DNA of 64,000 bases from Cyanidioschyzon merolae. Lineage: Eukaryota. The stretch is from NCBI GenBank assembly GCA_000091205.1, contig AP006502.2, one strand, 5' to 3'. Below the pieces are notes generated by a model. The model saw only the letters and a program-made list of their open reading frames with translations, did not search any database and had not been told where the DNA came from. The position numbers were made by a program, and so were the translations under genes. Shown piece after piece: positions 30,007-62,253 of this stretch (position 1 is the first letter of the stretch; every line of letters begins with the position of its first letter).

Positions 30007-30660
30007 TTGACTTTTGGTGTGCGAGGATTGCGTCACGAGTTGATGCAAGCGGTGCGACTGATCCAACGTACTTTTTGCGGCGTGCTGCAGAGACCGGCTG
30101 CGCTGTTATGCGCTCCTGCAACGCTCCGCCCGGTCAGCAAGCCGCTGCTCGTGCAAGGCACCTGGACACTGCCGACCAAGTCGGATGTTTACCAGACCGC
30201 GTTGGCGAAGCTGTACGCTGCCCGCGTGTGGGCAACGATACCACGGGCGTGGTACGCAACAAGCGTGGACAGCGACGAGAAGACGCTGGAGCGACTGCGG
30301 GAGCGGCAGGCGGTATTGGAAGGTGCTCGCGTCGAGCTCAACGAAGCCGACCTCGAGGAGACCTTTGTGAAAGGCGGCGGCCCTGGTGGCCAGAAAGTGA
30401 ACAAGACATCTTCGTGTGTAATACTGCGACATACTCCTACTGGAATAGTCATTCGCTGTCAAGCGTTTCGGTCCCAGTTCCAGAATAGACAGGAGGCCCG
30501 CCGCCTTCTCGCGCGAAAACTCGATCTGCAGCTGCGGGGAGAGGCTTCCCAGGTTTCTCAGGAAATCGCCCGCATACGTGCAAGAAAGCGGAAACGGCAG
30601 CAACGGGTCATGAAAAAATATTTCAAGAGTCGGTCCGATCAAGCTCGACTTGATTCGTGA
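30007..30660 (+). CDS. peptidyl-tRNA hydrolase, class-I release factor (RF-1) domain protein, ICT1/C12orf65-like
   Basis: GGQ motif in 'FVKGGGPGGQKVNKTSSCVILRHTPTGIVIRCQAFRSQFQNRQEARRLL'. It has a basic C-terminal tail and is short at 217 aa, so it lacks codon-recognition domains. Confidence 0.85.
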   Translation: MTFGVRGLRHELMQAVRLIQRTFCGVLQRPAALLCAPATLRPVSKPLLVQGTWTLPTKSDVYQTALAKLYAARVWATIPRAWYATSVDSDEKTLERLRERQAVLEGARVELNEADLEETFVKGGGPGGQKVNKTSSCVILRHTPTGIVIRCQAFRSQFQNRQEARRLLARKLDLQLRGEASQVSQEIARIRARKRKRQQRVMKKYFKSRSDQARLDS

Positions 30661-31786
30661 AAGTCGTTGGCTGGCGCTTGAGAGGAACCGCGCTCGGCGG
30701 AAGGCTTTTGCTCGTTTTTGTGGCGAGCATTGACAGCGATGGGACATTTGCTGGTTTTTTCACACGGATACTTTCGTTTTCCTGTGCCCGGCGCTAGTTG
30801 TCGCAGCAGGTCCTGAGGCCCCTGCGACGGGACGTACTGGAGAATGCGCAAGCGCCTTGAGAACAGTTTGGTGCGTTGGCGAAGCGCAGGCTTTCAGAGA
30901 TGTCGGTATGGAATGCCCAGCACCACGGAGATGTAATGGTCTCAACATGTCACCTTTTCTGGTAGAGAGAGGGTATACGATGTGAGGTCACAGTATATGG
31001 AGCAAATTTGACGCTCCGGAAAACCCGCATTTTCGACCCCGAAGAACCGAGCGATAGACACTCCACAGCTCAGTGTCGAGACGATTCCGAGACTGTTCTG
31101 GATCTTTATGGCTTTGCCCCTAGACCATCACGGTTATCATTGCAGAGTGAGACGCGATCGAGTTCGGTAATAGGGCGACGTCTTCACTGCGATTGTAGGT
31201 CAGTGCGACCATGAGCCTAAATCACCATCACCATCATCATCTTCTTCTTCCTCGCTATCGTTGTCGAGCGAGGCGCAATGGTGCTCGTCGCTCGCCACTG
31301 GATATCGAAGTATCTCTTCAGCAACAGTCGAACCGCGGGTGTTGCTGGCATACTGCTGGCTCATTGGCGAACACGCCGACAGAGAAATGCACCCGTGAAC
31401 CGTTTACCATGGAGCCCTTCGACTGAGTGCAGTGCTTTCCAGCGGTATGCGTGTATCCTCATCGCACATTACCCTTTCGTTTATTCTCATACTTTACCGT
31501 GTATGAAGCCTACGAGATGCTTGCGATCATGCTCACCGGCTTTATCACCATATGGTCGATGGAACCCGACCCCGAAATCGCTGCCGCTCAAGGAAACCTG
31601 CCAGGGCAGAGATCGCGCTGCGTCTGTCGATGCAGCAGCCGACTTTGCGGCCTGGGACATTGCGTGCGCATGGGAAGGTATGTATATTTTTATCCATAAA
31701 AATACATCAATGTTCCGTACGATGGGGCTCAAGCGGAGACGCGCGGAGCGCCGCCCGAAAGACGCCTTCAGTTCGTATCGGTTGTT

Positions 31787-33937
31787 GTGTGCGAGAGCGC
31801 GTGGCTCCGTTTCCCCATGGAGCGGAACGGAAGCTATACACACCAGCGTGCTCACTCAGAACGAAACTTTTCCAGCGATGACGAGGGACCCGTTCAGAAC
31901 GAGTCAGTTCCGCCGCCCAGTGCCTACAGCACCGTCGAAGTTGTGAGCGAGCGCAACGCTGACGAGCGGCGCCTCTACTTCACCCTCCACGATCACGGCT
32001 TTATAAGTGCGCTCCACGACATACCGCTCTACGTTGACCGAGAGAAGGGTATTTTAAATATGGTCGTTGAAATACCCCGCTGGACGAATGCCAAGTTTGA
32101 GCTGCGGACGCGACTTCCCTTGGCGCCTATCATGCAAGACGAGAAGAAGGGAAAGTTACGGTTTGTGCAGAACGTCTACCCATACAAAGGGTATATCTGG
32201 AACTATGGATGCTTTCCGCAGACATGGGAGGATCCAGAGCAAGTCCATATGGAGACGGGTGCCCTTGGTGATGGCGACCCGCTCGATGTCTGTGAGATCG
32301 GCCAGCATATCGCACAGATCGGTTCGATCAAGCAGGTGAAGGTGCTCGGCGTGCTGGGTATGATCGACGAGGGAGAAATGGATTGGAAAGTTCTGGTGAT
32401 GGATGTGCGAGACCCCAACGCCGACAACTTGAATGATGTTGACGATTTGTATCGCACAATTCCTGGTTTGGTGCACGCTACGTTTTCCTGGTTCCGCACA
32501 TACAAGGTGCCCGATGGCAAGGAGGAGAATAAGTTTGCTTTTCGCGAACGCGTACAGAGCCGCCAATACGCCCTTGAAATTGTCGAGGAGTGCCACAGAA
32601 GCTGGCAGCGACTTGTGTACGGAAAGGTGAAACACAGCAACCACCACTGTTCGAATACAACGCTGACTGATACACCACTCTACATGCCACCTGAAGAGGC
32701 AGCGTCCGTGGTCGAGCAGGTTCGCACGGAACTGAGCGCAACCACCGAGAACACCGGGGATGCGGGAATGAAACATGGTGCTCTTGCGACACGATCTCTG
32801 CGACCACTTCATCGTGAGGCCTCGATCAGTCAGCTGGAAAAATTCCACATGCCTGATTTCGCCCAGGAACTCACCAACGAATTCAATCAGCACGAGCGGT
32901 CTCTCTTCCAGGCGCCTTCGGAGACGATCAAGCACTTTCTGACGGAGCAACAGCGACAATATCCACACGGTAGTTCAGAGCTCTCGCTCCTCATCACCGA
33001 ATATGGAACAGCAGCGAAGATCATCGCCTCGAACATCCGCGATCAACCGGAGGCACCATTTGAGTACATGCGACAAAACGCCGATCGACAGCTGCATACC
33101 GCGCTGGCGACTTCAGGCTTCTGTTGCATGATCTATTCAGCGCAAACCGGGCAAATGATGCCCTTGGACCTGGACGCTGGCATTGGCAACTATGTCGTGG
33201 TCTACACTGCACTCGTTGGTGAAGTCGGCGGCACGCTGGGCAGCCTTTTTTCAGTTTATTATCGCAAATCTTACTCGGGTCGCGAGGGAGATACTGCTGA
33301 TCTGTTGCAGCGAATTGGATACGAGCAGGTAGCAGCTGGGTATGCACTGTACTCTTCGTCTGTGCATCTGGTGATTAGCACAGGTCTTGGCGCGCATATC
33401 TTCTTTCTGGATGATATCAGCGGGCACTTTGTACTGCGACAGAAGTTTGTGCAGATTCCACCCCGAGGTCGTGTCTATTCAGTAGACATATCGAGTTTAC
33501 CAAAAGCGATTGAGGGCGTGCGCCGCTATCTCGCCCAGCTGGAGTCCTCGAATGCGTCCCGTGAAACGAAACATACAGCGCTGATGGACGGACCAGCACC
33601 TGGCAAAATCTTTCGTTACGAACACAATGTGGTGGGCAATTTTCACCGGATTCTGCGGCACGGTGGTATCTTGCTGATGCCGGGACCACGGACCAACGCT
33701 TTGGCAGACTTTTTGGGTGTTGCGGCGCCGCTTGCGTTCTTGGCGCGTCAAGCAGGCGGCAAAGCGAGTGTGGGTAAGCGCCCAGTCTTGGAGCTGAGTG
33801 CCTGGACCCTGGATATGCGCGTTCCGCTCTTCATTGGCAGTATGAGCGATGTGAGTGATCTGGAGGTGTGCATTCTCGGACATCCGGTTCCGGAACGCTC
33901 CATCGTTACCGCTTCAGAGACTGTCTCATATACGTGA
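31787..33937 (+). CDS. fusion protein: family-I soluble inorganic pyrophosphatase (N-terminal) + fructose-1,6-bisphosphatase-like domain (C-terminal)
   Basis: PPase signature 'GDGDPLDVCEIG' and 'ILNMVVEIPRWTNAKFEL...KVLGVLGMIDEGEMDWKVLVMDVRDP'. The C-terminal 'GKIFRYEHN...LARQAGGKASVGKRPVLELSAWTLDMRVPLFIGSMSDVSDLEVCI' matches the FBPase C-terminal consensus (GKLRLLYE.NP....EKAGG.A..G...vLd..P..iH.R.P...GS..dV). The single ORF is 716 aa. Confidence 0.8.
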   Translation: MCESAWLRFPMERNGSYTHQRAHSERNFSSDDEGPVQNESVPPPSAYSTVEVVSERNADERRLYFTLHDHGFISALHDIPLYVDREKGILNMVVEIPRWTNAKFELRTRLPLAPIMQDEKKGKLRFVQNVYPYKGYIWNYGCFPQTWEDPEQVHMETGALGDGDPLDVCEIGQHIAQIGSIKQVKVLGVLGMIDEGEMDWKVLVMDVRDPNADNLNDVDDLYRTIPGLVHATFSWFRTYKVPDGKEENKFAFRERVQSRQYALEIVEECHRSWQRLVYGKVKHSNHHCSNTTLTDTPLYMPPEEAASVVEQVRTELSATTENTGDAGMKHGALATRSLRPLHREASISQLEKFHMPDFAQELTNEFNQHERSLFQAPSETIKHFLTEQQRQYPHGSSELSLLITEYGTAAKIIASNIRDQPEAPFEYMRQNADRQLHTALATSGFCCMIYSAQTGQMMPLDLDAGIGNYVVVYTALVGEVGGTLGSLFSVYYRKSYSGREGDTADLLQRIGYEQVAAGYALYSSSVHLVISTGLGAHIFFLDDISGHFVLRQKFVQIPPRGRVYSVDISSLPKAIEGVRRYLAQLESSNASRETKHTALMDGPAPGKIFRYEHNVVGNFHRILRHGGILLMPGPRTNALADFLGVAAPLAFLARQAGGKASVGKRPVLELSAWTLDMRVPLFIGSMSDVSDLEVCILGHPVPERSIVTASETVSYT

Positions 33938-34380: not shown

Positions 34381-37300
34381 TCACGATGTACCCGCTCCAT
34401 CGCGACCGCTGTCATCAGCGATACCTCCGGTCACATCGTCATCATCGTCAAGAGTCAGGTTGCCGAGGTCTACCTCGCGCGCCATGCTTGCCCGAGCTAT
34501 TTGCGCATAGATGCCATGAGCGCGCTCCATGAGTACGTAATGGGGTCCTTGCTCGACGACGTGTCCACTTTCGATGACACTAATCATGTCGGCAAAGTAG
34601 AGACTCTCGACGAGGTCGGCACGCAGCACGAAAACGACAGTGCGACCCGTGCAGATCGCTTTCAGGTCCAGTGCGACACCGTTCACCGTCATATCGAGCA
34701 ACGCCGCGTAACTCTCCGAGTCCAACAGAAGCATACTCGGATTACGGAGAAGGACGCGTGCAATGCCCAGCGCCTGCAACTGCGACGACGTGAAAAGCGC
34801 CTGTGCCGTTCTCGCTGATGGAACCATGGTCTGGTATCCGTTCGCAAGACGTAGAATCACCTCATGCATACCGACTAACGAGGCCGCACGGCGTACTTCC
34901 GCAAAGCATGTCCCAGTAGCACCAAAAGCGATGTTCTCGAAAACAGTCAGGCCGGCAATGAGACGGCTACCACGCCAGGGCACCAAGCCTATGGCAGCCG
35001 TCAGGGCCGCAGATGTGTAATCCTGCATCGGGTGCTCGCCAAGCATGATCCTGCCGCTGTCGGGGCGGCGCTTACCCGAAAGTAGCTCCAAAAGCAGTCG
35101 CTCCTCGCGTCGTTTCCGTAGAATGATACAATGGATCTGGTGATGTTCGATGGTGAGGTTCAGACTATGAAACACGTACTGCGCATAACGGCTGCCGATA
35201 CCATGCCGCGGGACCTTAGGATCGAGCGTATATGACTCCGCAAAAGAGCCGAACGGGGTTCCTGGGGACTGTGCGGAGGCGGGTGCGCTCCCGCTACGGC
35301 CACTGGTGGTTGACGAGACGCCGCGATCCTCTTCAAGAGGCGATGCGGTGGATGAGGCTTTCGATGCCCAGTCCTCAGGATCGTCCTTGACCGAGACATT
35401 ATCGAAAACAACGCGTACGCAGCGGTCGTCGACGCGCAAAACAGTTCCCAATCCTGCCTGACTAGCATCAACGATATCGAGCACGAAATCCAGGTACGCA
35501 TAGAGGTTCTGGCGTGCGTGCGAGTAACGCACCAGATTCTCCGTCATTCGAAGCAAGCTGATAATAAGCATGATGGCGAACAGAATGGCGGTTACTAGAC
35601 GGCCGCTTGAGCGATGCTTCGTTCTGGCAAGATGCCCGCCAATATAAATACCCAATACCGCGAAAATAGCGAGCACGAGGCCAAACGTCAGACCGCGTAG
35701 CAAGGACTGCAAGAGGTTCAGCCGCGCATCATGTTCACGTTCCACATCCGTAAACTCGTAAAGCCGTTGGAACTCCTTCTGGAACTGTTCTAGATAGACG
35801 ACGTTCGGCAGCGCAGCTCGGGACAGTTGCAGAAACTCACGAGCTTTCCGTGCTGCTTCTTCGTACCGCTGCTGGGCCCTGCGTGTAACGAACAGCTGGA
35901 GCATGCCCAGACCAGCAAGAATGGGCGTCGTGCCCAGAAGCACCAAAGTCAGAAACCAACTTTCAATGATACCGAAAATAAAGCTGCTGATAGCCTGCGC
36001 TGCGTACAAAGCGACACTCGACAGGTGCTCCACAGCGTCCAATACAAGTAGCTCCATTCGATCCAGTGTGTTCTGTTCGAAGAGCCAGCGATCGAGTCGA
36101 TCCGTGCCGACACCCGTTGTCAAAAGAAGCGCAGCAAACGACCAGAGACGGAGTCGGTAACGGACACGGCGACCAATCGTACCAAGCGAGCGACTCTGCC
36201 AGAGAACTACAAACGCAGCGGCACCGCTGATCACCCCGAATCCGATAAGGTAGCGATGAATGCTCGACACTGGGTTTCCAGCGATCACACCGTAAAAGAT
36301 CTGTGCCCAGTAATTCACGACGTGCCCGAAAAGGAACAGATACGCGGGAAAAATAACGCCAGATGCAAGGGCTGCCAACAACCCACCGACTGTCAACAGA
36401 GGTGCATTGAGGAGCCACTGACGCGGTGATAAGAGGTTCGCGATACTCTTCAGTTCTGCTAGATTGCGCTCAACGGTGTCCGAATCCACGGAGCACGCAC
36501 AGAGCGAAAATCCACAACACTGGAAGAGACCGCATCGGCGATTCCAGAGGGGTGGCAACGCTGCACTCATCGCAGGTTCGTCGGCAGAATCTCCATTCGC
36601 ATCATGCTGAGGTAAAGACTCTTCTGCACACTGTTTGGTGGCAGTCGAACTGGAACCAAGCGCCTTCTTCATCGATTCCGCCAGGGTGCGCGCGTACAGC
36701 GAGCCATCCGGGTAGATCCCGTAGACAAGCATCGCATAATAATCCATAAAAAATTCGCCGTGATCCGGCGAACTTCGCAACTTCTTGTTGAACACGTGTC
36801 TGAGGGCCTTGAACTTACCAAAGCCCCGCATGGAATCACCAGCTGGAAGCGACGTGGAAGCTTGCGCATCGCCTGGATATCGGCCAGCGGGCCCTGCAGA
36901 GCCAAAAGACGGCGATGTTTTGGGAAAGGCAGCCTGCATCCCCTGACGTGCTGCAGCTAACTGTTTCCCCGATGGATGTGGACCCTGCGCAGGTTGCGCC
37001 CCCGCAATATCGTCAACTGTAATCGCCACTGCGTCTTGGTCAACCAAACTCCGATTCATGGCGGCTTGAAAGGTCCCGTGTACAGCGTCGCTCGCTGTGG
37101 CAGGCGGCGTACTCTTGTTGAGATACTTGCGTGGAACGTAGGTTGGCGGCTCGTCTTCAGACGATGCGGAAGACAACGCCGAAGACGAGAGGTGTCCCGC
37201 CGAGCCTGTGTCCCCTGTATGAGCACCTGCGACAACGTTGTTTGCGGAAATAAGGCCAGTTCGAGGCGCGCTTTCAGACTGCGCACTGCCGCCGTCTGCA

Positions 37301-37704
37301 GCTGCTGCCGCCGAAGCTGTGCCTGCGACAACGTGTCTCTCGTCCGTACCACTCTGAGCTGCTGAAGAGCCACTGCTCTCAACTATGCTGAGTGCATTCT
37401 CGACAGCACGACCTTGAACAACACCAGCGGGTTCCATAGGGTTTCCGTGGGTCTCGAGATTAGCAGCTGCGCCGCTTCGTGAGCTCCCAGTCGACCGGGT
37501 GCTCCCAGCTGCGTTTGGCCTAGTAATATCCTCCCGTCGCTCCCCTGGACCATTACGGTTCGCATCCATAAAGTATCCAGTTCCCTTGTACGGATTTCCC
37601 GTGACCTCCACTGGACAATAGCACAAGGGGAACCCAACAGAGCGTTGCGTTTGTTCGCAACCTGGTGCTGCGGCGAAGAAACCGCGAGTACGAATCTTCT
37701 TCAT
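34381..37704 (-). CDS. ABC-transporter-like membrane protein (TMD + degenerate, probably non-catalytic NBD) with long disordered N-terminus
   Basis: The ABC NBD fold is recognisable in the C-terminal ~250 aa, but the key motifs are degenerate. Walker A position reads 'IILRKRREERLLLELLSGKRRPDSGRIML'. The signature LSGGQ is replaced by 'SSQLQALGIARVLL'. Walker B 'LLLDEAT' is replaced by 'LLLDSESYAALD'. Six or more TM helices lie upstream. Confidence 0.6.
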   Translation of the reverse strand: MKKIRTRGFFAAAPGCEQTQRSVGFPLCYCPVEVTGNPYKGTGYFMDANRNGPGERREDITRPNAAGSTRSTGSSRSGAAANLETHGNPMEPAGVVQGRAVENALSIVESSGSSAAQSGTDERHVVAGTASAAAAADGGSAQSESAPRTGLISANNVVAGAHTGDTGSAGHLSSSALSSASSEDEPPTYVPRKYLNKSTPPATASDAVHGTFQAAMNRSLVDQDAVAITVDDIAGAQPAQGPHPSGKQLAAARQGMQAAFPKTSPSFGSAGPAGRYPGDAQASTSLPAGDSMRGFGKFKALRHVFNKKLRSSPDHGEFFMDYYAMLVYGIYPDGSLYARTLAESMKKALGSSSTATKQCAEESLPQHDANGDSADEPAMSAALPPLWNRRCGLFQCCGFSLCACSVDSDTVERNLAELKSIANLLSPRQWLLNAPLLTVGGLLAALASGVIFPAYLFLFGHVVNYWAQIFYGVIAGNPVSSIHRYLIGFGVISGAAAFVVLWQSRSLGTIGRRVRYRLRLWSFAALLLTTGVGTDRLDRWLFEQNTLDRMELLVLDAVEHLSSVALYAAQAISSFIFGIIESWFLTLVLLGTTPILAGLGMLQLFVTRRAQQRYEEAARKAREFLQLSRAALPNVVYLEQFQKEFQRLYEFTDVEREHDARLNLLQSLLRGLTFGLVLAIFAVLGIYIGGHLARTKHRSSGRLVTAILFAIMLIISLLRMTENLVRYSHARQNLYAYLDFVLDIVDASQAGLGTVLRVDDRCVRVVFDNVSVKDDPEDWASKASSTASPLEEDRGVSSTTSGRSGSAPASAQSPGTPFGSFAESYTLDPKVPRHGIGSRYAQYVFHSLNLTIEHHQIHCIILRKRREERLLLELLSGKRRPDSGRIMLGEHPMQDYTSAALTAAIGLVPWRGSRLIAGLTVFENIAFGATGTCFAEVRRAASLVGMHEVILRLANGYQTMVPSARTAQALFTSSQLQALGIARVLLRNPSMLLLDSESYAALLDMTVNGVALDLKAICTGRTVVFVLRADLVESLYFADMISVIESGHVVEQGPHYVLMERAHGIYAQIARASMAREVDLGNLTLDDDDDVTGGIADDSGRDGAGTS

Positions 37705-37774
37705 GGCGGTGATGTGGCGGCACTGGGCGCCTGCGGGCCATCGCGTAGCCTATGCATCTGTCGAGCGCCACGTC

Positions 37775-38528
37775 AACGGATCTCAAGATCGACGCTGATG
37801 CGCTGATACATATCGGAATTTGGACACGTGTGCTTCGCGGACCTCGTGTGTGCCTGCGTGCAACGTACATGAATCGGTACATTTCAGTTCGCAAGATCGA
37901 CGCTGATGCGCTGATACATATCGGAATATGGACACGTGTGCTTCGCGGACCTCGTGTGTGCCTGCGTGCAACGTACATGAATCGGTACATTTCAGTTCGC
38001 AAGATTGACGCTGATGCGCTGATACATATCGGAATATGGACACGTGTGCTTCGCGGACCTCGTGTGTGCCTGCGTGCAACGTACATGAATCGGTACATTT
38101 CAGTTCGCGAGATCGACGCTGATGCGCTGATACATATCGGAATATGGACACGTGTGCTTCGCGGACCTCGTGTGTGCCTGCGTGCAACGTACATGAATCG
38201 GTACATTTCAGTTCGCAAGATCGACGCTGATGCGCTGATACATATCGGAATATGGACACGTGTGCTTCGCGGACCTCGTGTGTGCCTGCGTGCAACGTAC
38301 ATGAATCGGTACATTTCAGTTCGCAAGATCGACGCTGATGCGCTGATACAAATCGGAATATGGACACGTGTGCTTCGCGGACCTCGTGTGTGCCTGCGTG
38401 CAACGTACATGAATCGGTACATTTCAGTTCGCGAGATCGACGCTGATGCGCTGATACATATCGGAATATGGACACGTGTGCTTCGCGGACCTCGTGTGTG
38501 CCTGCGTGCAACGTACATGAATCGGTAA
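37775..38528. repeat. minisatellite: ~7 tandem copies of a 108-bp unit
   Basis: The unit '...cgctgatacatatcggaatatggacacgtgtgcttcgcggacctcgtgtgtgcctgcgtgcaacgtacatgaatcggtacatttcagttcgc(a/g)agatcgacgctgatg' recurs at 37801, 37909, 38017, 38125, 38233, 38341 and 38449. It produces 36-aa periodic artefact ORFs on both strands. Confidence 0.95.
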
Positions 38529-57112: not shown

Positions 57113-58313
57113 GATTAGGGAAACAATCCAGCGAGTGATGCACTAAGCCAAATACCGCAACGTGCGTGTAGTTTCCCAGGCAAAGACTCTGAGTTTGACA
57201 CAGTGTCCGACTTTTCAAATGCGCTCCTTGCTCGTGAAACACAGCCCAAGGCGCTCACAGACAAGCTTCCAAGTGGTCTCCCAACAGCGTACTCGTCTGT
57301 GTACAGCGTACAATCAACAACGTTTTGAAACAGGGACACATAACGTCGAACTGGAGCAGTGCCGTTCCCGCCTTGTGCTGCACGCATGCATGACGCGTGG
57401 ACACGGATCAGTCCGATACGTGCATTGTGCTGTCGATCGATTTTTTTCGATGAAAAGAACGTTCCATGGACCACGGGATACCAGCGTGCGTAATGGATAT
57501 TGAAATAAACGGAAGCGCTCAATGTTCTTCACTCTACCTCCAAGTTGCATCACTTTTACTTCCTTTCGGATGCGATGGCCGTTTTGTACGTTGTATCGTG
57601 CGCCGAGTGCCTGCCTTGCTGCATGCGTGATAGCAGTTATGCCGCCGGTGCAGATGCAGCACGGGCACAGAACGGCTTTGCCAGATCACTGAGGGCATCG
57701 GATCGCGGGACGCTTCACCTGATACGAAGTCGGAATACGTAATCATTCTGGGGGCTTGAAAACTGGGCAGGCAGATGTTCTTTATGCGGCAGCGGGAAGC
57801 GATGTACTAGGATTCCAACCCGACCAAGGCGATGCCCAGACACAGGATACCCGCTCCTAATCCCAGAATAAACTGTGACGAGGCGGTGAAGGACCTCACG
57901 AATCTGAAGAACCATTTGACAATGAACCTCGAACGTTTCATGATACGCGCCGTGTTTGTGCTGTATCCGGGTGTCTCTTGCAAAGGAATATGGGCGATTA
58001 TCAATGGCATCATGAACGATCGATAGTATAAAGATGAGATCGAATTCGTCGACAAGACGACATCACGCAGGAGCACAAATGAAGCTTCCGTAATCTGTGC
58101 GGTTATACAGGAGCACTGCGCAGTCTTGGGGCTGGCGAATCGAGCAGGAAGGATATCAGAGTTGAAAAAGATAAGGAAAGACACTATCGCCTCGTCCTGC
58201 GCAATTTTGTGTTTCTGGACCGAGAACTCGAATGCAAGGCGGAGATGAAGCCTAATGAGGAAAACATGAAGAGTGGGAGAGACGGAAGGCGTCCCTAATG
58301 GGTAAGCGCTTCA

Positions 58314-59597
58314 ATGGCGTTCTGTTGTGCAACATCAAGTCACATTTTTGTGACTATCGACTCCAGAATCCTACATGGCATCATGAGGGAGAACAGTCCG
58401 GAGTTCGATGTTAGCAGGGAGAACTTCACCGGTGAAAACCGGGAGACGTACTGGAAGAATATCTTCGATTTCAGATGTCTCAAAACAAGCAAGAAAAAGA
58501 ACTTCACTGAGATGATCGAAACCGATGGAGTAGCCATGTGTGTACACCATCGGCGCTTGAAGGCAGATCGTCCAGTTCCGCTCTCGACTTCGCCCTCGGC
58601 GAAGCATGAACATGAGTAGAGGACGGATCCTGCCACTCAGAAAGTGCAGGATCACGACCTTGTCGTTGGCGCAGCGGAGCATGAAGATGAGAAGGAGGCG
58701 GGTCTTGAGAAGCAGAAAGTGCAGGATGACGACTTTGTCGTTGGCGCAGACCCCCGAAACACAAATATCATAACGATCGCTGTACCTAAGCGTGCGGAAG
58801 ATGGCATTGACGGCAACTTATGTCAGAAAGACATACGTCTTTTGAGGTTCTCTAGAGCAAGATACTATCGAGAATCGGGAACCATGAATGCAAGGAAGAA
58901 AATCGACACATGGAATGGAGGAATGAAGGGTCACCTGGGAGCTTTGAGCGAAGTGACGAGCCGAGGAGCGGACTTTCGAGCTTTTCGGAAATTCATGGAG
59001 GTTCGCGTTGCTCATTGGGAGGTGCTGTGGAAAGAGTATACAAAGCCCCGGTCGGCTCGTTTGCGAATGAATCTATACAGTGGGAAGCAGCGGGCGTTTG
59101 CCAACTTTTTCAATCAGTTGAGTGCCTTGAAGGAGGACGAGAGTCAAAGGCTCGTAGTAGCGTATGGGACAGCGCACTGGGCGCCCAAGAAAGGCACTAA
59201 GCCAGCTCCAACGACAAGAACTTACGAGGAGTGCGCAAGGCGTTTTGTTACGATACCTATAGATGAGTTTCGAACATTGTATACACACCATGAGCTGGGG
59301 TGTATACTTCAAAGGGTCGAGATGGAAAAGAGCCAGTAGAGCCCTGAAGTTATAAAAAAGTACGGAGCACTGACGGAAGACCAAATGGAAAGGAGGGCGA
59401 GAGTTCGAGGATTGCTTGCACTAGTGAGTACAACTACCAGTGGCAAGAAACGCATGGAGTTTGTGAACCGCGAATTCAATGCCGCAATCAATATAAGGAA
59501 ATGTGCGGTGCTGGAGAAGAGACCTCCAGAGTTGGCGAGAGAGAATTTTGTTGGACAATCTCTCAAAGTCGAACTATATGAGAAAAAGTTGGAATAA
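58314..59597 (+). pseudogene. TnpB/Fanzor-like (OMEGA-family RuvC) nuclease gene remnant; one reading frame with two in-frame TAG codons
   Basis: One frame contains three ORF pieces: 58314-58619, 58644-59339 and 59385-59597. RuvC-I-like '[18 protein letters not shown]' lies at ~58734-58790. 'FVTIPIDEFRTLYTHHELGC' at ~59240-59305 resembles the TnpB 'V.VDP.YTSQ.CS.CG' block with cysteines lost. RuvC-III-like 'KRMEFVNREFNAAINI' at 59451-59495 matches 'R.F.C..CG...RD.NAA.NI' but with C to M/V and D to E changes. The in-frame TAGs are at 58617-58619 and 59337-59339. Confidence 0.6.
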
Positions 59598-59994
59598 GTG
59601 GTGTGTGGCCGGTCCAAACAGGTTGCGAGGCGTCTGCACAACTGTCGGAGACGTTCTGTCTAGGGCGGGCTCCTCGCCACTACTGTACACCGCTGGCGGA
59701 AACGTTTTTCTTTTGAAAAGCGTTCGTTGTTGGCTTTGGTGAGCTCAAGCTTTGACTATCATTTGTTGAATAACCAAATTAAAACCAGTGAGTGGATCGT
59801 GTGCTCCAGTGGAAAACACCGTGCTCCACTGTTGGTTGCTTACGCGCCTCACTCTGAGGAGGCCGTGCATTTCAGGAGCGATCCGTCCCCTGCTGCTACA
59901 GAGCGCATAACGCCGTGACCTCCCGACGAGGCACTGACAAGGTTAGTGTACAAGTTCCAGGATCCGAGCAGCACCAGACGGCAACGCGCTACAA

Positions 59995-62253
59995 ATGCCA
60001 AAGCAAAAGCTTAAGCTGCCGCGTGGGCCGCAAGGCCGGCTTCCATCATCCTCTACTGATCCAAACCGAGGTAACCGCATACCTGGAGGTGGCGGTTGGG
60101 GTCGAAGTCGCGCTACCGTTAAACGAATACGGATGTATGCTCGTCCCGCTTATGAGCGAGACCGCAACGGACGCATCCAGCATGATCGTGGCGACCTGAC
60201 GAGTTCGGTCGTGAAAGAACCCGGTGCGGGTCGAATCGCTCCAAATCGTCGTTGGTTTGGAAATACTCGTACAATTGACCAGGAGAGTCTCCAGACTTTT
60301 CGAGAGAGCATTTCAGGTGCAGAGCGCGATCCATACACGATAGTTCTGAGACAACGGCATCTACCGTGGACGCTCATCAAGGAAGGCATGGAAGCGAGAG
60401 ACGTTGAACGTTTTGAACATGCCGCAGGCAGGGCAAACCTGCGGTCGCATGCATTGGCGGAAGGCTCGGAAATGACAAGGGGAGTACGGTTCAAGTCCTC
60501 TCAGGCGCTGCTTCGTTTGGAGCCTTTCGCTGAAACATTTCACCAACGTCGCTGGAGAAAGCGACCGCGAATCGCCTTCGATAGTATAGAAGAACTGGCG
60601 GAAAGCGTTCGAGATACTGCCACAACTGCAGCCGCGGCCGCCGGTGCTGCTCAAGCCACCACTGCGGAGCCTGGCGCTGGCAGCGAAGAGCCGAGACCCG
60701 AGGCAGGCCCAGATACATTGCGATCACGCAGTCTGCCTCCAGTACCAGGAGCCGAACGGTCTACAGCAGGTTCATTGAAACAGCTTGCCTCGGAGCAGGT
60801 TCCTGAGCGCAGCATCGATGCACTGGGCAAGACGGCGTACACGAAAGGCCAAAGCCACCGCATCTGGTCGGAGTTGTACAAAGTCATAGATGCTTCCGAC
60901 GTGGTGCTGTTCGTGCTCGATGCTCGGGATCCACTCGGCACCCGTATACCGCTCATTGAAAATATGCTCCGCAAAGAGCATGCTCACAAACACTTGGCTT
61001 TCGTTCTGAACAAGTGCGACCTGGTGCCAAAACATGTCACTGCTGTCTGGTTACGTCTCCTGAGCCGTGAGTATCCCACCGTTGTTTTTCGTGCAAATGA
61101 CTGCAAACGCGCATTCGGGCGTGGAGCGCTCCTACAGCTACTCCGGCAGTTCGCGCGCCTGCATCGCAAAGATCGCCAGTCCATCACCTGCGGTCTCGTG
61201 GGCTACCCTAACGTTGGCAAATCGTCCATCATCAATGCTTTGCGGAAGGAGAAGGTGGTGCGAGCCGCCCCTATTCCCGGAGAGACCAAAGTCTGGCAAT
61301 ATGTAACCCTTTTCCGTCGTGTGTACCTCGTTGACTGCCCAGGGGTGGTGCACGCGCGCCTCGCTGGACACATGGACGTCTCTGACATGGTGCTTCGCGG
61401 TGTTGTTCGGATTGAGAGCCTCCGCGATGATGCGGAGCGGCATATACCGCGTCTGCTTGAACGAGTCAACCGACATCATCTCGAAGCTGTTTACCGAGTG
61501 AGCCTGGATGGATGCGACGCCGACGGTTTTCTCGACGCTATCGCCCGGGCTCGCGGCAAACTTCTTCCTGGCGGTGAGCCCGATCGCAACGCTGCAGCCA
61601 AACTGCTCATTCATGATTTCATTCTGGGTCGACTGCAATGGTACGTCGCACCGCCGGCGATGCCCTCCTCAGTGGCGAAGGCAAACGCAGTGCTCTCTCT
61701 GGACGGCAGCGCTCGCGCCTCTGTCATTGGTACGAACGCGGTTGAGGTGTCGTCCGCTGGCGACGATCGGAACTCGCAAATGCAACGCCATACAGGGAGC
61801 AATGCTGGCGTCTCGAGTCCCGGATCAGAAGCGCTTGACATGGACGAAAGACGAGCCCACTCTGGATCAGCGGCCACCCGCCCGCTGGTAGATGGAGCTG
61901 ATCTGCTCCTGCACGATCTACTAGCCGAACAGAGTTTCGATGAAGATGATGAGGCTCCTGAGGCGCTGTCTGTGTTTACGACAACGAATACTAGCCGAGA
62001 TACCAGCGCTGGAACGCAGTTCACACCGGATGCAGCGGATAGTACTGCGGGGACATCGTCACCAGTCCGAGTCTCTGAAACTGCCGAGCGGTCCATCCGA
62101 AAAGCCCGGAAAAAGTCAACATCAACGCGATCGAAGCGGCGTGCAGGTCGTCTTTCCAAGCGGTTGCGTCGGCTGGCAGAGTGGAATACGGAGCCCGTGC
62201 TGCAGGCAAATCTCCAACGGACATTGCAGAAAACCGAGCCCAGGGTCCATTAA
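59995..62253 (+). CDS. NOG2: nucleolar GTP-binding protein 2 (NOG2/GNL2, circularly permuted YlqF/YawG GTPase)
   Basis: The N-terminal NGP1 motif is 'NRIPGGGGWGRSRATVKRIRMY'. The GTPase motif order is permuted: G4 'VLNKCDLVP' precedes G1 'GYPNVGKSSIINAL' and G3 'YLVDCPGVV'. It has a basic C-terminal tail. Confidence 0.9.
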   Translation: MPKQKLKLPRGPQGRLPSSSTDPNRGNRIPGGGGWGRSRATVKRIRMYARPAYERDRNGRIQHDRGDLTSSVVKEPGAGRIAPNRRWFGNTRTIDQESLQTFRESISGAERDPYTIVLRQRHLPWTLIKEGMEARDVERFEHAAGRANLRSHALAEGSEMTRGVRFKSSQALLRLEPFAETFHQRRWRKRPRIAFDSIEELAESVRDTATTAAAAAGAAQATTAEPGAGSEEPRPEAGPDTLRSRSLPPVPGAERSTAGSLKQLASEQVPERSIDALGKTAYTKGQSHRIWSELYKVIDASDVVLFVLDARDPLGTRIPLIENMLRKEHAHKHLAFVLNKCDLVPKHVTAVWLRLLSREYPTVVFRANDCKRAFGRGALLQLLRQFARLHRKDRQSITCGLVGYPNVGKSSIINALRKEKVVRAAPIPGETKVWQYVTLFRRVYLVDCPGVVHARLAGHMDVSDMVLRGVVRIESLRDDAERHIPRLLERVNRHHLEAVYRVSLDGCDADGFLDAIARARGKLLPGGEPDRNAAAKLLIHDFILGRLQWYVAPPAMPSSVAKANAVLSLDGSARASVIGTNAVEVSSAGDDRNSQMQRHTGSNAGVSSPGSEALDMDERRAHSGSAATRPLVDGADLLLHDLLAEQSFDEDDEAPEALSVFTTTNTSRDTSAGTQFTPDAADSTAGTSSPVRVSETAERSIRKARKKSTSTRSKRRAGRLSKRLRRLAEWNTEPVLQANLQRTLQKTEPRVH

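Follow-up and report, generated by a model that had tools for sequence, protein, structure and literature searches.

A 64,000-nucleotide stretch of contig AP006502.2 of the red alga Cyanidioschyzon merolae (assembly GCA_000091205.1), referred to here as the window, contains a single open reading frame (ORF) that joins a soluble inorganic pyrophosphatase (PPase) to a domain with the fold of fructose-1,6-bisphosphatase (FBPase). The product is best read, with reasonable though not high confidence, as a competent and probably cytosolic family I PPase whose C-terminal half is a pseudoenzyme derived from an FBPase.

The mechanical ORF covers positions 31787..33937 on the + strand (2,151 nt) and gives 716 amino acids (aa) from a GTG at 31787. 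The first ATG is found 30 nt downstream, at 31817, and leads to a product of 706 aa plus the stop codon; an in-frame stop lies upstream at 31697. The PPase and FBPase-like halves share one frame, with no stop or frameshift between them, and both domains were matched by profile, PDB-sequence and model searches, in line with the single-ORF fusion proposed in a preliminary description of this DNA. The 706-aa product is identical at 706/706 positions to C. merolae 10D protein XP_005539167.1/BAM83131.1 (UniRef100_M1UXE4), and the RefSeq length is equal. The RefSeq protein is encoded on a 1.62-Mb contig, and the window is accordingly nuclear DNA of C. merolae. That description had also taken such a fusion to be undescribed, which is not so at the annotation level. 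The identical RefSeq entry XP_005539167.1 is already named 'inorganic pyrophosphatase fused with fructose-1,6-bisphosphatase' at NCBI, this name is also borne by a Gracilaria domingensis entry, and one from JGI goes under 'fructose-1,6-bisphosphatase/inorganic pyrophosphatase'. The arrangement is already annotated and hence not novel.

Of the two halves of about 330 aa each that had been outlined at first, both families stand and the sizes do not: a PPase core (about 250 aa) follows a 40-aa extension, and a linker of roughly 75 aa leads into an FBPase-like domain of some 320 aa, after which 20 aa remain as a tail. Pfam profile PF00719 (Pyrophosphatase) matches aa 82-264 over its full length (profile positions 1-153) with an E-value of 2e-47 and 161.3 bits, the gathering cut-off being 23.5. 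The Pfam scan assigned the C-terminal half to the FBPase family and to no different one, through PF00316 (FBPase; best stretch aa 422-542, E 5e-21, 75.5 bits, gathering cut-off 34.8) and PF18913 (FBPase_C; aa 547-685, E 3e-19, 69.6 bits, gathering cut-off 27). When searched against PDB sequences, aa 41-292 matched yeast PPase (E 1e-90), and aa 369-686 matched E. coli FBPase 2gq1 (E 1e-31 to 1e-32) and human FBP2 (3e-30). An AlphaFold2 model was built on a 44-sequence family alignment, with a mean predicted local distance difference test (pLDDT) score of 76.7 and a predicted template modeling score (pTM) of 0.52. It consists of two well-folded domains with a disordered linker between them. Comparison of the model by Foldseek gave template modeling (TM) scores, normalized to the target, of 0.84-0.87 against human and yeast PPase (0.86 for the human enzyme; root mean square deviation 2.3-2.6 Å) and of 0.79-0.83 against human FBP2/FBP1 (0.80-0.83 for FBP2).

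The state of the PPase active site was scored by alignment with yeast IPP1 at residues E48, K56, E58, R78, Y89, Y93, D115, D117, D120, D147, D152, K154, Y192 and K193. All 14 are identical in 44/44 family members, D152, D154 and D157 of the C. merolae protein being the equivalents of yeast D115, D117 and D120. Together with the PF00719 match and the PPase fold of the model, this result bears out the textbook family I PPase that had been recognized from its 'DGDPLDV' signature, and the PPase half is predicted to be catalytically competent, that is, a working enzyme. The fusion protein is probably cytosolic, since it begins with a short acidic extension that is not conserved and is all but missing in Galdieria; the extension also has no obvious transit-peptide character.

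A different picture was obtained for the FBPase-like half. Residues were mapped by phmmer pairwise alignment to E. coli FBPase and human FBP2, and by MAFFT alignment of the C-domains of 47 family members, human FBP2 and eight bacterial FBPases (FBPase residues are given in pig/human numbering). The mobile catalytic loop 52-72, which includes D68, is deleted in C. merolae, and a deletion of 13-14 residues is present in 47/47 members. The D74 position is occupied by R419 in C. merolae and by A, Q, S and others across the 47. E97 is replaced by A442 (S, T or A across the 47) and E98 by Q443 (variable, with a single E among the 47). T464 is found in place of D118 and V467 in place of D121, the corresponding residues across the family being N, T or S at the former position and C, V, L, M and others at the latter. 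A 4-residue deletion, placed slightly differently by each aligner, lies around SSNID, and the SSN substrate segment (S123-S124-N125) is replaced. The preliminary description had taken 'PLDLDAGIGNY' as the counterpart of the 'DPLDGSSN' metal motif, but the true counterpart is 'YTALVGEVGG', and the quoted segment is aligned about 10 residues upstream of the motif, with FBPase residues ~103-113.

The substrate site is affected in a similar way. N212 is D in C. merolae and in 41/47 members, Y215 is S in C. merolae and variable in the family, and Y264 is M in C. merolae, with L, M or K across the 47 members. K274 is changed to L in 47/47, and R276 to D in C. merolae, with variable residues elsewhere. 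E280 corresponds to V635 in C. merolae, although 41/47 members keep the glutamate. No change from R243 is seen in the family (47/47); Y244, kept in C. merolae, is Y in 12/47 and H in 32/47. Overall, C. merolae has 0/7 of the acidic metal ligands (D68, D74, E97, E98, D118, D121 and E280) and the other members have at most 1/7. Since no metal ligand is left in C. merolae, hydrolysis of fructose 1,6-bisphosphate (FBP) by the canonical mechanism is not credible. In addition, the NCBIfam equivalog cut-off for class 1 FBPase is not reached, the best model, NF006778, giving 177.5 bits versus 368 and the other FBPase models scoring lower. The altered metal motif and the non-canonical second module noticed at first are thus confirmed, with the loop deleted and most substrate ligands replaced, and degeneration of this half, as judged from the alignments, is far more thorough than had been seen. 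The coupling of pyrophosphate (PPi) removal to a sugar-phosphatase step, which had been offered as one possible role, is at odds with an FBPase half that has lost its catalytic machinery.

Despite these losses, the domain is well conserved. The C-domain of C. merolae is 73% identical to that of Cyanidium, 56% to Galdieria, 52-54% to Porphyridium, Rhodosorus and Agarophyton, and 45-49% to glaucophytes, with 65-85% identity for the PPase domain in the same comparisons. The retention of 45-56% identity across phyla in a dead domain argues for a non-catalytic function. Regarding individual C-domain columns, 81 are conserved at >=90% in the fused family alone, 50 are common to genuine FBPases, and 47 that are conserved in canonical enzymes are lost or changed. 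One family-specific conserved segment, T.KRF....QR.FPHGSN.LSLL, is the counterpart of helices H1/H2 and of the loop that binds adenosine monophosphate (AMP); further ones are VYYRKS..G..GD..DLLQR, SGHF, NFH, PGP and ARQAGG.ASVGKR..LELSAW. By this measure, the pseudo-FBPase domain is strongly constrained since before red algae, Rhodelphis and glaucophytes split, and is no decaying relic. With its fold kept, its catalytic residues lost and its long-term conservation, the FBPase-like domain is, on sequence grounds, a pseudoenzyme.

Orthologues with the same fusion were sought in related genomes, as had been suggested, and are present across Rhodophyta, in Rhodelphis and in two glaucophytes. The same architecture is found in Cyanidiophyceae (Cyanidioschyzon, a Cyanidiococcus-like genome, Cyanidium and two Galdieria species), in Porphyridium purpureum, P. 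aerugineum and Rhodosorus marinus, and in the florideophytes Agarophyton and Gracilaria, as well as in many assemblies with florideophyte-like sequences. Outside the red algae it occurs in Rhodelphis limneticus, a member of their non-photosynthetic sister group (partial transcript), and in the glaucophytes Cyanophora paradoxa and Cyanoptyche gloeocystis. Transcript-derived orthologues with both domains come from MMETSP assemblies of Porphyridium aerugineum, Rhodosorus and Cyanoptyche, from Agarophyton (Transcriptome Shotgun Assembly entry GEZJ01001565) and from a Rhodelphis Trinity assembly; therefore, the PPase and FBPase-like domains are co-transcribed in those species. Two separate genes, the outcome that would have spoken against the fusion, were not seen, the orthologue transcripts of at least five species holding both domains.

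Beyond the fused family, the next full-length matches are single-domain PPases of fungi and animals, and the next C-domain matches are ordinary FBPases of about 335 aa with 30-38% identity. An exhaustive phmmer scan of 1.84 billion representatives gave no family intermediate between the fused proteins and ordinary FBPases, and no green-plant member; in Viridiplantae, the fusion would have been either lost or never present. Three deletions are common to all family members in the MAFFT alignment, and neighbor-joining trees of the PPase and FBPase-like domains are congruent, with red algae monophyletic and Rhodelphis and glaucophytes outside. The common deletions and the congruent trees point to one ancient fusion, inherited vertically. 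The best non-family matches of the C-domain are bacterial (33-35% identity) and have an 'FPH' motif in common with it; a bacterial (Bacteroidia/E. coli-like) origin of the domain is conceivable, although long-branch effects in a pseudoenzyme make the ranking of scores unreliable.

Some related sequences were recorded along with the family. Among the matches of the exhaustive scan, the longer FBPase-containing proteins P0254, P0268, P0278, P0308, P0315, P0367, P0329 and P0290 were checked for a PPase domain, and none has one. Protein P0389 (658 aa) has a degenerate FBPase-like C-terminal domain in which the motif reads 'VVVDPLMGADG' and D121 is lost, with weak Pfam scores. Its N-terminal region of 340 aa is of low complexity, has no PPase domain and is unrelated to the N-terminus of the fusion. 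In view of P0389, pseudo-FBPase modules may have arisen more than once. Cyanidiococcus yangmingshanensis protein P0042, a public gene model of 401 aa, has the FBPase-like half only and is labeled 'inorganic pyrophosphatase' by NCBI and 'fructose-bisphosphatase' by UniRef. In all likelihood this model is a truncated form of the fusion, and its UniRef name implies an activity that the FBPase-like domain cannot have. Near-identical copies of the fusion protein were found on hot-spring metagenome contigs (JGI/ENA/Logan), C. merolae-like strains being therefore well sampled in public metagenomes. In one metagenome sequence, P0001 (cluster 1), T353A and L589M are the sole differences from the window protein, both outside the conserved cores.

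The poorly conserved linker contains, in red algae, one almost invariant block, whose consensus in florideophytes is LGRSNSWLDMTHIPPPEF. The pattern [MLVIF]-x-[RKH]-x-x-S-x-x-x-[MLVIF] is present in 39/44 linkers versus a mean of 1.8/44 in shuffled linkers, although this count is inflated by sequence relatedness, and the real evidence is the column-level invariance within a variable and disordered segment. In 41/41 red-algal sequences this Ser is unchanged, and in all 41 an R or K stands at -3. A hydrophobic-x-basic-x-x-Ser-x-x-x-hydrophobic pattern is the recognition motif of the SNF1/AMPK/SnRK1 kinases and of plant calcium-dependent protein kinases. S336 of the C. merolae protein is a candidate phosphorylation site, and the motif suggests phosphorylation control in red algae. 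In the text covered of the supplements of C. merolae TOR proteomics and phosphoproteomics studies, no pyrophosphatase entry appears.

As for the function of the dead C-domain, a non-catalytic role would be expected, most plausibly regulatory or scaffolding. FBPases are tetramers, and the domain may oligomerize the PPase through FBPase-type dimer or tetramer interfaces. It may also sense a metabolite through remnants of the AMP site or of the 6-phosphate site, or bind a partner protein such as a genuine FBPase, either of which could tune PPi hydrolysis. The partner-binding idea fits the invariant R243, a residue that reaches into the active site of the neighboring FBPase subunit. In red algae, S336 in its SnRK1/AMPK-type motif may add phosphorylation control. 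The allosteric or regulatory module suggested in the preliminary description is a plausible possibility. The storage glucan of red algae and glaucophytes is a cytosolic product of nucleotide sugars, so that regulated removal of cytosolic PPi would be a logical point of control, and the physiological role of the fusion might be the control of cytosolic PPi removal and hence of the synthesis of floridean starch and floridoside, which depends on uridine diphosphate (UDP)-glucose.

A broader proposal is offered as a tentative one, with a low likelihood as a whole. According to it, the fusion would be an ancient regulatory device of non-green Archaeplastida (Rhodophyta, Rhodelphis and Glaucophyta). 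A metabolite of gluconeogenesis (FBP, fructose 2,6-bisphosphate, AMP or a hexose phosphate) would be sensed, or genuine FBPase bound, by the dead FBPase domain, and in red algae SnRK1-type phosphorylation of Ser336 would act as a further switch. The combined effect would be a gate on cytosolic PPi hydrolysis and hence on UDP-glucose-based cytosolic (floridean) starch and floridoside synthesis. As a rare genomic change, the fusion would moreover either unite those lineages or record its loss from Viridiplantae at the time when starch synthesis became plastidial.

Several points weigh against the interpretation of the protein as a cytosolic PPase under the control of a pseudoenzyme domain. Full-text searches, with subscription journals mostly outside their coverage, gave no paper discussing the fusion protein. 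Its cytosolic location is deduced solely from an N-terminal extension without conservation, and the S336 phosphosite is put forward from a motif match alone. The full linker motif is missing in two Rhodosorus sequences, and it is also missing in three glaucophyte sequences, where Ser or Thr is kept and the basic residue is absent. The relation between the distribution of the fusion and cytosolic starch is a correlation drawn from general knowledge and is speculative. The counterpart of the AMP site is partly preserved (T27 changed to S, E29 to E/D, T31 to S, and Y113 kept) and partly altered (G28 to N/S, K112 to N and R140 to Y), the loop 'FPHGSNDLSLL' in this region being highly conserved in the family. 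Finally, E280 and R243 are kept in most members, which may leave some phosphate-binding capacity.

Other explanations of the same data were considered. If the C-terminal half were an active FBPase, the protein would be a bifunctional enzyme, in keeping with its database name, with two pull steps of gluconeogenesis and UDP-glucose synthesis on one polypeptide. Both FBPase Pfam domains above their gathering thresholds, the UniRef label of the Cyanidiococcus fragment, R243 and Y244 kept in C. merolae and E280 kept in 41/47 members are in favor of it. However, the metal ligands are reduced to 0/7 in C. merolae and <=1/7 elsewhere, loop 52-72 is deleted in 47/47, SSNID has its 4-residue deletion, K274 is L in 47/47, Y264, N212 and Y215 are replaced, and the NCBIfam score does not come to half of the equivalog cut-off. 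Single mutations at some of the residues lost in the fused family abolish catalysis in the pig and human enzymes, and an active FBPase is regarded as highly improbable. That two adjacent genes were read as one ORF by an error of gene model or assembly has a negligible probability. The sole point in its favor is P0042, the truncated Cyanidiococcus model of 401 aa in which the protein is split; the frame is continuous over 2,151 nt with no stop, the same architecture recurs in >45 proteins from independent genomes plus transcript assemblies of at least five species, and the linker has a conserved motif of its own. An artefact was rejected on account of the continuous ORF and the transcript-derived orthologues.

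Two further readings accept the loss of FBPase activity. The domain could have been neofunctionalized, with a different active site or substrate on the FBPase fold, using the FPHGSND loop, SGHF, NFH, a conserved Cys pair and ASVGKR. Many of the 81 family-specific columns are indeed polar or ionizable (H384, H537, H610, R483, K484, R655, C437, D492 and D495), but no replacement acidic cluster able to bind metals was found, the family-specific residues are spread along the sequence without an evident motif, and interfaces account equally well for the conservation, so that a new catalytic function is considered quite unlikely. Alternatively, the dead domain could act as a pseudo-subunit that hetero-oligomerizes with genuine FBPase in a metabolon, tethering the PPase or modulating the FBPase, with R243 completing the 6-phosphate site of its neighbor. 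In FBPases, R243 extends over the C1-C2 interface to the active site next to it. Its invariance in 47/47 despite the dismantled pocket of its own domain, as well as the retention of the FBPase fold and core, would agree with this arrangement. The model is purely inferential, R243 could be structural, and such a pseudo-subunit is thought to be rather unlikely. A competent PPase carrying an FBPase-derived pseudoenzyme domain is preferred.

What has apparently gone unstudied is the persistence, over >1 billion years in red algae, Rhodelphis and glaucophytes, of an 'FBPase' half that is unable to work as an FBPase. The present reading corrects database names that imply FBPase activity, from which red-algal metabolic reconstructions could count a non-existent FBPase isozyme, and it provides a further example of a pseudoenzyme domain on a housekeeping PPase. 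It also offers a handle on the control of cytosolic PPi, and thus of UDP-sugar and floridean-starch synthesis in red algae, C. merolae being genetically tractable, and, for the disputed order of branching within Archaeplastida, a candidate rare genomic change. What is added here is the remapping of the motifs, the evidence for a conserved pseudoenzyme, the taxonomic range, in which no green-lineage member was found, and a candidate regulatory serine in the linker. No surprising mechanism is demonstrated for the fusion protein.

Table 1. Features of the PPase/FBPase-like fusion gene, in positions of the window (FBPase residues in pig/human numbering).
Feature	Position	Strand	Basis
Complete coding sequence, PPase/FBPase-like fusion	31817..33937	+	ORF list, translation, protein identity
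N-terminal extension, aa 1-40	31817..31936	+	acidic, predicted disordered, pLDDT <50 for aa 1-25, non-conserved
Family I (yeast/animal-type) PPase domain, aa 41-292	31937..32692	+	PF00719, yeast PPase PDB match, Foldseek, residues
PPase signature DGDPLDV, aa 152-158	32270..32290	+	translation, invariant columns
Interdomain linker, aa 293-368	32693..32920	+	poorly conserved, pLDDT <50 for aa 312-344
Linker motif LHREAS(336)ISQL, aa 331-340	32807..32836	+	linker alignment; S336 = 32822-32824
Class I FBPase-fold domain without catalytic apparatus, aa 369-686	32921..33874	+	Pfam, PDB, Foldseek, residue losses
'SAQ', counterpart of FBPase S96-E97-E98, both metal-ligand glutamates gone	33137..33145	+	alignment mapping
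'PLDLDAGIGNY', aa 449-459	33161..33193	+	aligns with FBPase residues ~103-113 (phmmer, MAFFT)
'YTALVGEVGG', aa 463-472, true counterpart of FDPLDGSSNID	33203..33232	+	alignments, translation
R600-Y601, equal to FBPase R243-Y244, among the few substrate-site residues kept	33614..33619	+	alignment
'LADFLGVAAP', aa 629-638, counterpart of GKLRLLYECNP, 2-residue deletion	33701..33730	+	alignments, translation

The window has about 55% G+C, long intron-free ORFs and no tRNA genes. Genes near the fusion encode an RF-1 domain protein, an ABC half-transporter, a glyoxalase II-like protein, Tudor-SN, a DAG/sphingosine-kinase-like protein, an AAA ATPase and an NGP1-type GTPase. Genomic context was rejected as a functional clue, since these neighbors are unrelated eukaryotic housekeeping genes with no operon-like arrangement. 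The ORF directly upstream (30007-30660, +) is the one for the RF-1 domain protein; it has the GGQ motif 'GGPGGQKVNK' and is probably an organellar release factor of the ICT1/peptidyl-tRNA-hydrolase type. A 108-bp unit, repeated in 6.9 tandem copies with 98% identity (37784-38527), adjoins the start of the ABC-transporter ORF (34381-37704, -) on its upstream side. The ORFs across this repeat (37553-38518, -, and 37752-38528, +) are probably repeat artefacts because their Pfam matches are spurious. Positions 58001-60000 show an unusually strong purine skew of the + strand, with a GC skew of 0.154 and an AT skew of 0.146. The ORF at 58644-59339 (+), of 231 aa and with no Pfam match, has the C-terminus '...VTIPIDEFRTLYTHHELGC' and could be a mobile-element remnant.

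Compared with known systems, the fusion resembles S. cerevisiae IPP1 and human PPA1 in its PPase half, which is about 50% identical to them over 250 aa and has their fold and all 14 of their catalytic residues. It differs from them in the roughly 410 aa of linker and FBPase-like domain at its C-terminus, which the yeast, animal and fungal enzymes do not have. With class I FBPases (E. coli Fbp, 2gq1; human FBP2, 3ifa; pig FBP1) it shares both Pfam domains, the fold and 28-35% identity, as well as R243, Y113, the GG motifs and the C-terminal 'AGG...G..P.L' region, whereas the catalytic loop, the metal ligands, K274, R276, Y264, N212 and Y215 are deleted or replaced. The acidocalcisomal PPase of trypanosomatids (EF-hand plus PPase, PDB 5cuy/5c5v), a direct sequence match with an E-value of about 1e-50, likewise has a soluble PPase core joined to an accessory domain, which is regulatory in that enzyme. 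Family II CBS-domain PPases also combine a PPase core with a regulatory, non-catalytic accessory domain. The accessory domain of the fusion, in contrast, lies at the C-terminus, is a pseudoenzyme with the FBPase fold and no relation to EF-hand or CBS domains, and has a regulatory role that is only proposed. Another ancient and lineage-wide fusion of a PPase with metabolic enzymes is the ATP sulfurylase-APS kinase-PPase of oomycetes, diatoms (stramenopiles) and haptophytes (PMC2705460). There, the partners are active and produce PPi, whereas the partner described here is catalytically dead and is no PPi producer.

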